From the IMG/VR virus record IMGVR_UViG_2541047712_000002: 64,000 bases of DNA; one strand, written 5' to 3'. Of this stretch, positions 47,949 to 48,983 are shown piece after piece; positions within the stretch are counted from its first letter, which is position 1; each line of letters starts with the position of its first letter. Origin of the DNA: a virus. Taxonomy: Duplodnaviria; Heunggongvirae; Uroviricota; Caudoviricetes. The notes beneath the pieces were generated by a model that was not told where the DNA came from, made no database searches, and worked only from the letters and a program-made list of their open reading frames with translations. The position numbers and the translations under genes are program-made.

Positions 47949-48149
47949 ATGATCAAAATCTATCTATTGGCAGTAACCACAGGCCTTTCAGTGGCTCTCA
48001 TCTACGGTTTACTGGTTCCGTCGCTGATTTCTACCAAGAGTGATTTAGCCGTCATGTTTGGAGTTATCGTTGGTTTTGGTGCTCCTGTAATCGGTCTTAT
48101 TGCTGGTCGTAAGTTTATCAACTCATTAATCAAAGCAAAGGGGAAATAA
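47949..48149 (+). CDS. small membrane protein
   Basis: 66-aa ORF with two hydrophobic helices, 3 nt upstream of SPFH gene. Confidence 0.35.
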   Translation: MIKIYLLAVTTGLSVALIYGLLVPSLISTKSDLAVMFGVIVGFGAPVIGLIAGRKFINSLIKAKGK

Positions 48150-48152
48150 GTA

Positions 48153-48983
48153 ATGAAGAAAGGTTTACTTGCAGTTGCTCTGGCGGCTATTTGCACAATG
48201 GGTCTTACTGGCTGCGATCGCGTGGAGCCTGGATACGTTGGCATCAAAGTAAACAAATTAGGTGAAGACAAAGGGATTGGTGAAGTGGTTGGCGTTGGTC
48301 GCCAATGGACAGGTCTTAACACCGAACTTTACGTATTCCCGACCTTCAAACAAATGAAGACCTACGACGAGCCGTTCACATTCCAGATGAGTGACGGTAC
48401 TGCTATTGGTCACAAAATTGGCGTTGCGTATCTGGTTAATCGTGACAAGGTAACGACGGTGTTCCAGACCTATCGCAAAGGCGTAGACGATATCACCGAA
48501 TCAGATCTGCGTCAGAAAATTGCCGACTCTCTAAACCGTTTGGCCAGCCGTATGACCACTGACTCATTTATCGACGGTGGTAAGGCACAATTGCTGGACA
48601 ACGCACTGAAAGATATTCAGAAAGAGATGTCTCCGGTTGGTATTGAGGTACTGAGCCTGTCATGGGTTGGAAAGCCTGATTACCCAAAAACTGTCATTGA
48701 ATCTATTAACGCCAAAGTAACGGCTAACCAGCGTACTCTGCAACGTCAGCAGGAAGTTGAACAACGTAAAGCTGAGGCGAATATGCTACGTGAACAGGCT
48801 AATGGTGAAGCTGATGCTATCCGTGCTCGTGCGCAAGCAGAAGCAGACGCCATTCGTCTGCGCGGTGAAGCTCTGCGTCAAAACCCGAACGTTATGGAAC
48901 TGGAAGCCATCAATAAATGGAATGGCCAGTTACCGCAGTACATGACTCAAGGGGCTAACACTCCTTTCATTACAGTGAAATAA
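48153..48983 (+). CDS. SPFH/band-7 (prohibitin-like) domain lipoprotein
   Basis: 276-aa ORF with lipoprotein signal (LAAICTMGLTGC) and C-terminal coiled-coil rich in Ala/Arg/Glu (LQRQQEVEQRKAEANMLREQANGEADAIRARAQAEADAIRLRGEALRQ). Confidence 0.45.
   Translation: MKKGLLAVALAAICTMGLTGCDRVEPGYVGIKVNKLGEDKGIGEVVGVGRQWTGLNTELYVFPTFKQMKTYDEPFTFQMSDGTAIGHKIGVAYLVNRDKVTTVFQTYRKGVDDITESDLRQKIADSLNRLASRMTTDSFIDGGKAQLLDNALKDIQKEMSPVGIEVLSLSWVGKPDYPKTVIESINAKVTANQRTLQRQQEVEQRKAEANMLREQANGEADAIRARAQAEADAIRLRGEALRQNPNVMELEAINKWNGQLPQYMTQGANTPFITVK

Follow-up and report, generated by a model that had tools for sequence, protein, structure and literature searches.

An SPFH-domain lipoprotein and a small hairpin membrane protein encoded as a pair on an enterobacterial phage-plasmid: a candidate periplasm-facing membrane scaffold

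In recent cryo-electron microscopy, the SPFH cages formed by HflK/C, prohibitin, stomatin, flotillin and erlin are seen to fence off patches of membrane. We know of no established client or physiological role for most bacterial members of the superfamily. The logic of the operons that join an SPFH gene to one for NfeD has been described (PMC2636767); in the same survey, of 2009, subfamilies 3, 4 and 6-12 of the prokaryotic SPFH proteins had no NfeD partner, and several small undocumented subfamilies without one were recognised (PMC2636767). Here we analyse a pair of genes from a stretch of 64,000 nucleotides (the window) of the Caudoviricetes record IMGVR_UViG_2541047712_000002, which we take to come from a phage-plasmid of the SSU5/pHCM2/pMT1 type. 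Both open reading frames (ORFs) lie on the plus strand. The first (47949..48149) encodes a hairpin membrane protein of 66 amino acids (aa), and the second (48153..48983) the 276-aa precursor of an SPFH lipoprotein, whose family may be one of the undocumented NfeD-less subfamilies of the survey. With little more than even confidence, we read the pair as a two-component membrane scaffold, in which a periplasm-facing SPFH ring on the inner membrane would have the hairpin as its transmembrane subunit.

The two ORFs can be taken as a genuine pair and not as chance reading frames, since both products match PHROG families and the region is conserved among plasmids and phages. Identical or near-identical copies of the 1.2-kb region occur in 186 PLSDB plasmids, which with few exceptions are non-mobilisable plasmids of E. 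coli or Shigella of about 100-120 kb. The region is also found in the Escherichia phage records CMS-2020a, PhiR41_1 and Cyrano. The 276-aa protein is a member of the SPFH superfamily with a lipoprotein signal peptide. It matches the Pfam family Band_7 (PF01145) with 106.2 bits against a cut-off of 23.6 (E=2.6e-30), over residues 23-209 and profile positions 2-176 of 176, and phrog_200 ('lipoprotein') with E=3e-108. In RefSeq the plasmid gene is annotated 'SPFH domain-containing protein'. The domain (48219..48779) is delimited by the Pfam envelope and agrees with the AlphaFold and Foldseek results. The N-terminus, MKKGLLAVALAAICTMGLTG followed by Cys21, ends in a classical lipobox. A lipoprotein precursor is expected to have a basic n-region, a hydrophobic h-region and a lipobox of the pattern [LVI][ASTVI][GAS]C near residue 20, and this is the arrangement found here (MKK-GLLAVALAAICTMG-LTG-C21). 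The signal peptide (residues 1-20) and L-T-G-C extend from 48153 to 48215, Cys21 (48213-48215) being the predicted lipidated first residue of the mature protein, followed by Asp22-Arg23. An exhaustive search of 1.84 billion cluster representatives gave 195 SPFH relatives (E<=1e-30), for the most part lipoproteins of 270-300 aa that share the conserved start C-x-[RK]-V-x-[PA]-G-x-V-G-[IV]-K-V; a lipobox was recognised in most of 150 representatives. The Cys itself is invariant in the diverse alignments A2, A3 and A4, including natural fusions of the two proteins. Both the SPFH-like core and the LTGC lipobox, which a preliminary description had read from the letters of the DNA alone, are thus borne out by profile search and family alignment, and the outcome that was named as refuting it, a profile search with no SPFH match, did not occur.

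The AlphaFold model of the 276-aa protein has a mean predicted local distance difference test score (pLDDT) of 78, rising to 86-96 over residues 65-180. It consists of the SPFH alpha/beta core, a single helix at residues 179-243 (48687..48881) and a C-terminus of low confidence, with pLDDT below 60 over the last 30 residues. Foldseek aligns the full chain to human prohibitin (8rrh), HflK/C (7vhq, 7wi3 and 9cz2), erlin1/2 and stomatin, with probability 1.00 and E values from 5e-13 to 1e-10; flotillin, major vault protein and QmcA (E=1.7e-6) match more weakly. By sequence, the sole PDB chain found was HflK, a weak match at E=0.007 over residues 116-242. The predicted fold is that of ring-forming SPFH members. 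The long Ala/Arg/Glu-rich helix, which the preliminary description had taken for a coiled coil, is delimited by DSSP on the model, and structural alignments to cage-forming SPFH chains and the HflK sequence match cover it as well; in the model its counterparts are the coiled-coil helices that make up the wall of SPFH cages. Beyond it lies the motif E-A-I-N-K-W-N-G-Q-L-P (48903..48935; alignments A2, A3 and A4). W256 is invariant in every family alignment made, and G258 and P261 are invariant or nearly so (at least 90%). This KWNG-containing motif is a candidate oligomerisation or cap element, and its pLDDT in the monomer model is low. Assignment to the HflK/C class was rejected on architecture, given the lipoprotein signal in place of a transmembrane anchor and a single SPFH gene with a 66-aa non-SPFH neighbour. 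Flotillin was rejected on its score (Pfam Flot, PF15975: 19.9 bits, below the cut-off of 27).

The 66-aa protein has hydrophobic segments at about residues 4-28 and 32-53, in keeping with the two helices first proposed for it, joined by the neutral four-residue turn TKSD and followed by a C-terminal tail of net charge +5. Because the turn is neutral and the tail carries +5, the positive-inside rule predicts a hairpin with both termini in the cytoplasm (N-in/C-in). The protein matches phrog_1130 ('membrane protein') with E=2.3e-25. A word-indexed search recovered close relatives only, at 73% identity or more; the wider family was recovered from the N-termini of fused proteins and with a custom hidden Markov model (HMM) applied to ORFs upstream of SPFH genes. 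The conserved turn is LVPSLISTKSDLAV in the window protein, and the motif of the family is P-x-L-I-S-x-x-S/D followed by V..G. Pfam holds no family for the protein, 19 members of the hairpin family giving noise only, and the family profile found no relative in the PDB. The preliminary description had suggested looking for an NfeD-like partner. NfeD (PF01957) was rejected, as the hairpin family has no Pfam or PDB relative and 66 residues with two transmembrane helices leave no room for an OB fold; the protein belongs instead to a separate hairpin family.

Members of this hairpin family are encoded beside, or fused to, the present SPFH subfamily across bacteria and phages. About one in eight of the SPFH relatives carries an N-terminal extension of 60-100 residues. 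These extensions align with the 66-aa protein of the window and its counterpart in phage P88 through a first transmembrane segment, the motif G-x-x-x-P-x-[LM]-[ILV]-S-[AS]-x-[SD]-x-x-x-V-x-x-G, a second transmembrane segment and a basic tail. Profile searching added many further fusions, among them the enterobacterial protein P0021. The order of parts in P0021, and in all 19 fused proteins of alignment A4, is hairpin, basic linker, signal-peptide-like helix, invariant Cys and SPFH domain, and the lipobox Cys is kept in 19 of 19. An AlphaFold model of a fusion (mean pLDDT 86) has three helices followed by the SPFH fold. The phrog_200 profile has some 80 additional N-terminal positions, our protein matching from position 80 of 379, and these may correspond to the fused forms.

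For genes that are not fused, 80 diverse bacterial loci were recovered with a 12-sequence SPFH alignment and their upstream ORFs scored with the hairpin HMM. Of these loci, 60 have the hairpin gene directly before the SPFH gene, 2 have it within the same ORF and 4 have it displaced, which makes at least 66 of 80. The 14 HMM-negative loci, inspected by eye, held several more motif-bearing hairpins or fusions; about 6 were true absences, all in Bacteroidota or Ignavibacteriota. Eleven phage loci were also sampled, from P88 (P2-like), Cyrano, phiP27 (lambdoid), S6 (N4-like), Bruynoghevirus TL, one Vequintavirinae phage, a 337-kb jumbo phage, a crAss-like phage, a Lak megaphage, phi644-2 and the phiCbK-like phage Karma. 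A hairpin gene lies upstream of the SPFH gene in nine (E<=8e-6); another gave a weak match and one locus none. Between the window plasmid and P88 the SPFH part is 77% identical and the hairpin 25%, conservation of the hairpin being limited to the turn motif and hydrophobicity. The spacing of the two genes varies at some loci. In Pseudomonas phage TL (gp11, 72 aa) and Salmonella phage GEC_vB_MG (gp129, 54 aa) a small ORF stands between the hairpin homologue and the SPFH gene, so the module can take a third small gene. In chromosomal prophage copies of E. coli and Shigella (loci L087 and L088, about 4218-4915), an IS1 with InsA/InsB-like ORFs on the minus strand separates the two genes by about 0.8 kb.

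In the window the genes are 3 nucleotides apart, as was first noted, and share a reading frame with only TAA-GTA between them, before the ATG of the second (48147-48155). The Shine-Dalgarno sequence of the SPFH gene, AAGGGGA (48138..48144), lies inside the 3' end of the small gene, which suggests translational coupling. That of the small gene, AGGA (47939..47942), is 6 nucleotides before its ATG; both were read from the sequence on the plus strand. A change of the one stop codon would fuse the two ORFs into a protein resembling natural fusions such as P0021. Programmed readthrough of the in-frame TAA was rejected as a feature of the family, because in P88 the two genes are in different frames with an ATGA overlap.

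Tight coupling of the genes could also be expected of a caged membrane toxin, of the holin/antiholin or abortive-infection kind, in which the hairpin would be the active part and the SPFH ring would sequester it until a trigger led to depolarisation. Class II holins are small two-helix hairpins with a basic C-tail, and the 66-aa protein resembles them in all three respects; SPFH cages, to judge by the titles of the matched structures, are known to enclose membrane proteins. However, hairpin-SPFH fusions in many lineages are hard to square with a toxin that has to be released, no endolysin or spanin genes adjoin the pair, PADLOC gives no match, and in Dyella and Leptospira the pair is stably chromosomal in a housekeeping context. 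We therefore regard a caged toxin as very improbable. A spanin-like lysis component, bridging the envelope and disrupting the outer membrane at lysis, has only a surface likeness to our locus, in that a lipoprotein goes together with a small protein of the inner membrane. Spanins of the Rz/Rz1 type consist of a small outer-membrane lipoprotein and a type II inner-membrane protein with a periplasmic coiled coil, and are encoded in a lysis cassette. Compared with Rz/Rz1, sizes and roles are inverted: here the lipoprotein is large with a coiled coil, and the membrane protein has almost no periplasmic part. The SPFH fold is clear, the pair lies outside any lysis cassette with no lysis genes nearby, and it is present in non-phage chromosomes. 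The likelihood of a spanin is negligible, and we consider it ruled out by architecture, SPFH domain and context.

The signal peptide and invariant Cys point to export and lipidation of the SPFH protein. The first SPFH strand begins only 3-4 residues after the Cys, a spacing that must bring the domain flat against whichever membrane carries the lipid. At position +2, 90 of 99 enterobacterial homologues have Asp; in the wider family it is found there in 12 of 114 and 1 of 108 sequences of two samples. Asp+2 is the Lol-avoidance signal of E. coli (PMC6469965). Enterobacterial members are thus probably in the inner membrane, both because of this enrichment and because an alpha-helical hairpin partner must sit there. 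The order of parts in the fusions, in which the hairpin is followed by linker, helix, Cys and SPFH domain, is topologically self-consistent.

A scaffold of this kind would be built as follows. The precursor would leave the cytoplasm through Sec, receive its lipid at Cys21 and lose its signal peptide to signal peptidase II; in enterobacteria Asp+2 would then keep the lipoprotein at the inner membrane, facing the periplasm. There the SPFH domains would rest on the membrane, and the long helix and the C-terminal KWNGxLP motif would drive assembly into a ring or cage of the kind that HflK/C, prohibitin and erlin form. Translational coupling would yield hairpin and lipoprotein in roughly equal amounts. 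HflK/C and prohibitin carry their transmembrane palisade in cis; here the hairpin would add one in trans, with its conserved turn, on the periplasmic side, touching the membrane-proximal SPFH domain. The assembly would enclose a patch of inner membrane and so confine or regulate a host membrane protein. Prohibitin associates with the m-AAA protease. By analogy with this, with HflK/C-FtsH and with QmcA, for which an FtsH interaction is reported, the leading candidate client is the FtsH protease. This is the weakest step, and we think FtsH a possible but doubtful choice; as client it would tie the pair to the classical Hfl effect on lambda. Phage-genome papers have made the same FtsH/Hfl guess without data (PMC8540360, PMC4936722, PMC10269572), and another calls the reason for an SPFH gene in a phage genome unclear (PMC13239085).

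Several points weigh against the scaffold. Ring formation is predicted from the fold of a monomer alone. For the FtsH step, orthology to HflK or HflC was rejected, the scores lying far below their cut-offs (HflC, TIGR01932, 30.2 bits against 134.4; HflK, TIGR01933, 18.7 against 159.4); that HflC is the best NCBIfam match counts in favour of the SPFH identity. Basic residues adjacent to Asp+2 are said to weaken inner-membrane retention (PMC6469965), and the window protein has Arg at +3, beside Asp22; a basic +3 residue is found family-wide as part of the conserved domain start. Most homologues outside the enterobacteria carry Ser or Thr at +2. Cleavage of a fusion by LspA would release its lipoprotein part for Lol transport. 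Sorting to the outer membrane is therefore a less probable but real alternative, and outer-membrane vesicles have yielded a prophage protein of Pasteurella that is possibly related (PMC9872710). Promoter-like sites in the region scanned, including the one predicted upstream of the pair, are no more numerous than expected by chance. PADLOC-DB 2.0 has no match, at E values up to 0.1, to either protein or to two downstream ORFs, and a known anti-phage defence system was rejected as no PADLOC model matched. In the literature searched, we found no experimental study of the family or of phage SPFH lipoproteins.

Some of these same points would suit an outer-membrane or vesicle lipoprotein acting as a virulence factor, transported by Lol, shed in vesicles and serving as a TLR2 agonist or altering the envelope, with the hairpin needed for biogenesis only. 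Arg+3 may weaken retention by Asp+2, Ser or Thr is usual at +2 outside the enterobacteria, and the pair is found on Y. pestis pMT and on the pHCM2-type backbone of Salmonella. Against this, Asp+2 is specifically enriched in enterobacterial members, triacylated lipoproteins stimulate TLR2 generically, and neither the conserved pairing or fusion with an inner-membrane hairpin nor the presence in strictly virulent phages of environmental bacteria fits virulence as a primary function. A possible parallel is the prophage 'HflK/C-like' protein PM0222 of Pasteurella multocida (25-35 kDa), which is found in outer-membrane vesicles, signals through TLR1/2 and whose deletion attenuates virulence (PMC9872710); it may be related to the present family. 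We consider a primary role in virulence quite unlikely.

A tblastn search found a relative in 373 phage records, from temperate and strictly virulent phages of hosts that include Pseudomonas, Klebsiella, Erwinia, Escherichia, Burkholderia, Caulobacter, Salmonella and Prevotella. The pair lies inside the cox-A early operon of P88, between repressor and int/xis in phiP27, in the early or middle region of S6 and at the early left end of TL. Because it sits in early lytic operons of other phages, the pair is probably active in the first stage of infection and not in the plasmid state alone. Elsewhere the locus is not part of a prophage. In Dyella and other Rhodanobacteraceae (L100-L136) the pair is in a conserved neighbourhood beside nrdAB and a BlaR1-like M56 peptidase, and in Leptospira (L142, L144, L152, L153 and L159) beside sdhCAB; these conserved neighbourhoods argue that the pair is chromosomal there, and their housekeeping context speaks for a general cellular role of the scaffold. 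On its distribution, the module appears to be an old cellular pair captured many times by phages.

The phage distribution could also reflect superinfection exclusion, a lipoprotein ring and hairpin blocking the entry of other phages' DNA at the inner membrane and so protecting the plasmid-state lysogen and the early lytic cell. Analogues in purpose are T4 Imm/Sp, T5 Llp and Streptococcus Ltp. The pair is a lipoprotein moron with its own predicted promoter on a temperate element, it occurs in the early operons of virulent and temperate phages alike, and its spread over 373 records is what a generally useful function would show; one phage paper speculates on a role in adsorption or DNA entry (PMC13239085). 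On the other hand, an exclusion role is not obvious for pairs beside housekeeping genes on Dyella and Leptospira chromosomes, we found neither a PADLOC match nor an experimental report, and the 77% identity of the SPFH part between unrelated phages is unlike that of fast-evolving exclusion proteins. Exclusion is in our judgement unlikely; the preliminary description, too, had put forward exclusion, or an effect on host membrane physiology, as something that the pair may bring about. A broader proposal is conjectural and rather improbable as a whole: the pair would be a distinct, ancient and so far undescribed SPFH system, an exported lipid-anchored ring around a dedicated hairpin (either separate, or fused and then cut at the internal lipobox). 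Phages (crAss-like, Lak, N4-like, P2-like and lambdoid) would have captured it repeatedly to control a host inner-membrane machine early in infection, likeliest FtsH, as an envelope-side structural counterpart of lambda CIII.

In the window the pair is part of a discrete moron, a promoter (predicted), two genes and a terminator inserted in a replication-recombination module. The promoter-like site is sigma70-like (47891..47919, plus strand), TTGAAA and TATTAT separated by 17 nucleotides, with 10 of 12 matches in a consensus scan; the pMT plasmid of Y. pestis keeps both hexamers and their spacing. Intrinsic terminators found by a terminator scan on the plus strand flank the cassette. The upstream copy, after recA (47861..47888; -14.7 kcal/mol, z=-6.2), consists of AAGGCGTCC-ACA-GGACGCCTT and TTTTTTAT. 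The downstream copy (49000..49025; fold energy -15.1 kcal/mol, z=-4.6) has a stem at 49000-49019 of 8 pairs, 6 of them G-C, followed by TTTTTT, and is the strong terminator that had been noted at the end of the pair. The two are near-identical, with the common stem and tail GGCGTCC...GGACGCCTTTTTTATC in the form GGCGTCC-loop-GGACGCC-TTTTTTATC; the motif GGCGTCC-N3-5-GGACGCCTTTT occurs only twice in the 64 kb, where none is expected by chance.

Presence and absence among relatives complete the picture of a moron. In the Enterobacter hormaechei plasmid p1, recA and one terminator copy are followed directly by the downstream genes, and the cassette is absent. The copy kept at this empty site is the downstream terminator. 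In Y. pestis pMT, where the site is occupied, it is also found 3' of the SPFH gene, and there this terminator and its flank do not differ in sequence from those of the empty site. As the empty site holds one terminator and the occupied pMT site has a matching flank, the cassette must have been gained or lost in one piece, at or between the terminator repeats. Recombination at the repeat itself is probably the means, given that there are only two terminator copies in 64 kb and one at the empty-site relative.

The moron stands between recA and the plasmid replicon, as the preliminary description had placed it. Upstream is a RecA with a LAGLIDADG intein (45517..47856, plus strand) and downstream a Rep3-type RepA (51084..52139, minus strand), both from Pfam. 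The RecA is of 779 aa, with the Pfam families RecA, LAGLIDADG_3 and Intein_splicing; at the equivalent position Y. pestis pMT has a 358-aa allele without intein, and the Enterobacter p1 gene is annotated 'intein-containing recombinase RecA'. Small genes of unassigned function fill the plus strand between cassette and repA (49075-50594). Two of them encode members of DUF7238 (141 aa) and phrog_2209 (91 aa). The others are a hydrophobic ORF of 59 aa, one of 111 aa that begins like a signal peptide, and one of 70 aa that is the 'P1 Cra protein' of the phage Cyrano annotation. In P0018, a chimeric 303-aa protein from a 9.7-kb contig, the SPFH sequence runs from residue 1 to about 226 and then continues as the C-terminal portion of the DUF7238 protein encoded downstream; this is evidently a deletion variant of the cassette locus.

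For this neighbourhood the phage Cyrano annotation gives hicAB, uvsY, a gp32-like single-stranded DNA-binding protein, an exonuclease, recA, a 'membrane protein' and a 'Stomatin-like integral membrane protein'; beyond the SPFH gene are several hypothetical genes, the P1 Cra-like gene and repA. The order recA, small gene, SPFH gene also recurs on related plasmids of Salmonella, Klebsiella oxytoca, Enterobacter and Yersinia pestis (pMT), and it is because this order is common to them that we assign the element to the phage-plasmids. The cassette or a diverged copy is present in 283 of 5,426 complete E. coli genomes (about 5%), with 195 full-length copies on plasmids and about 100 places on chromosomes.

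Identification of the SPFH gene is not new, since hundreds of records already annotate an 'SPFH domain-containing protein' with a 'hypothetical' or 'membrane protein' neighbour; in Y. pestis pMT (L173, NZ_CP009784.1, 59589-60623), for example, the two are labelled only 'hypothetical protein' and 'SPFH domain-containing protein'. In the searched literature we found no description of the periplasm-facing lipoprotein architecture, of the non-NfeD hairpin partner and its fusions, or of the breadth across phages and bacteria. The pair surprises less than it poses a clearly defined question, one that lends itself to experiment. It is readily studied as a self-contained cassette of 1.1 kb, naturally present or absent on otherwise similar plasmids, and its spread (about 5% of complete E. 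coli genomes, Y. pestis pMT, Salmonella pHCM2-type plasmids and 373 phages of differing lifestyle) is an aid. A client, if identified, would explain carriage by many unrelated phages, a question that several phage-genome papers raise, and would provide a second bacterial exoplasmic SPFH cage to set beside HflK/C. Should the pair be a generic membrane stabiliser, it would be an ordinary accessory gene.

Among described systems, E. coli HflK/HflC-FtsH (7WI3, 7VHQ, 9CZ2) shares with the pair the SPFH fold and long wall helix (full-chain match, E about 1e-12), SPFH domains on the periplasmic side of the inner membrane (predicted here) and a link to phage biology, in its case through lambda CII turnover. 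It differs in that HflK/C is a K/C heteropair with N-terminal transmembrane helices and no hairpin partner, whereas the window has one SPFH gene, a predicted N-terminal lipid anchor and a dedicated 66-aa hairpin; FtsH binding belongs to HflK/C and would apply to the window protein by analogy only. The SPFH-NfeD operons (QmcA-YbbJ, 8Z5G; YqiK-YqiJ; FloT/FloA-NfeD; Pyrococcus PH1511-PH1510) offer a parallel in gene arrangement, a small membrane protein gene directly upstream of the SPFH gene in a two-gene operon, whose product works together with the SPFH protein. The partner in the window, however, lacks the NfeD/OB-fold domain. QmcA, YqiK and the flotillins face the cytoplasm, unlike the window protein, which is predicted to be exported. 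The eukaryotic prohibitin and erlin cages (8RRH, 9O9Z, 9O9U, 9VVG) provide the best full-chain Foldseek matches (E=5e-13 to 2e-12) and, like our protein as predicted, lie on the non-cytoplasmic face of the membrane. The closed cages are theirs, and they are heteromers of two paralogues anchored by transmembrane helices, with 15-19% identity to the window protein.

Nearer in sequence are phrog_200 and phrog_1130, of which the two window proteins are clear members; their annotation is limited to the names 'lipoprotein' and 'membrane protein', and the link between the families is not recorded there. Pasteurella PM0222 (PMC9872710), a possible relative, resembles the SPFH protein in being a prophage 'HflK/C-like' protein of 25-35 kDa, recognised through TLR1/2 as triacylated lipoproteins are. 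It differs in that the study of it places it in outer-membrane vesicles and treats it as a virulence factor only, describing no partner protein. Taken against these systems, and as far as the sequences indicate, the window subfamily would be set apart from characterised SPFH proteins by its lipid anchor, its periplasmic face and a 66-aa hairpin in the place of NfeD.

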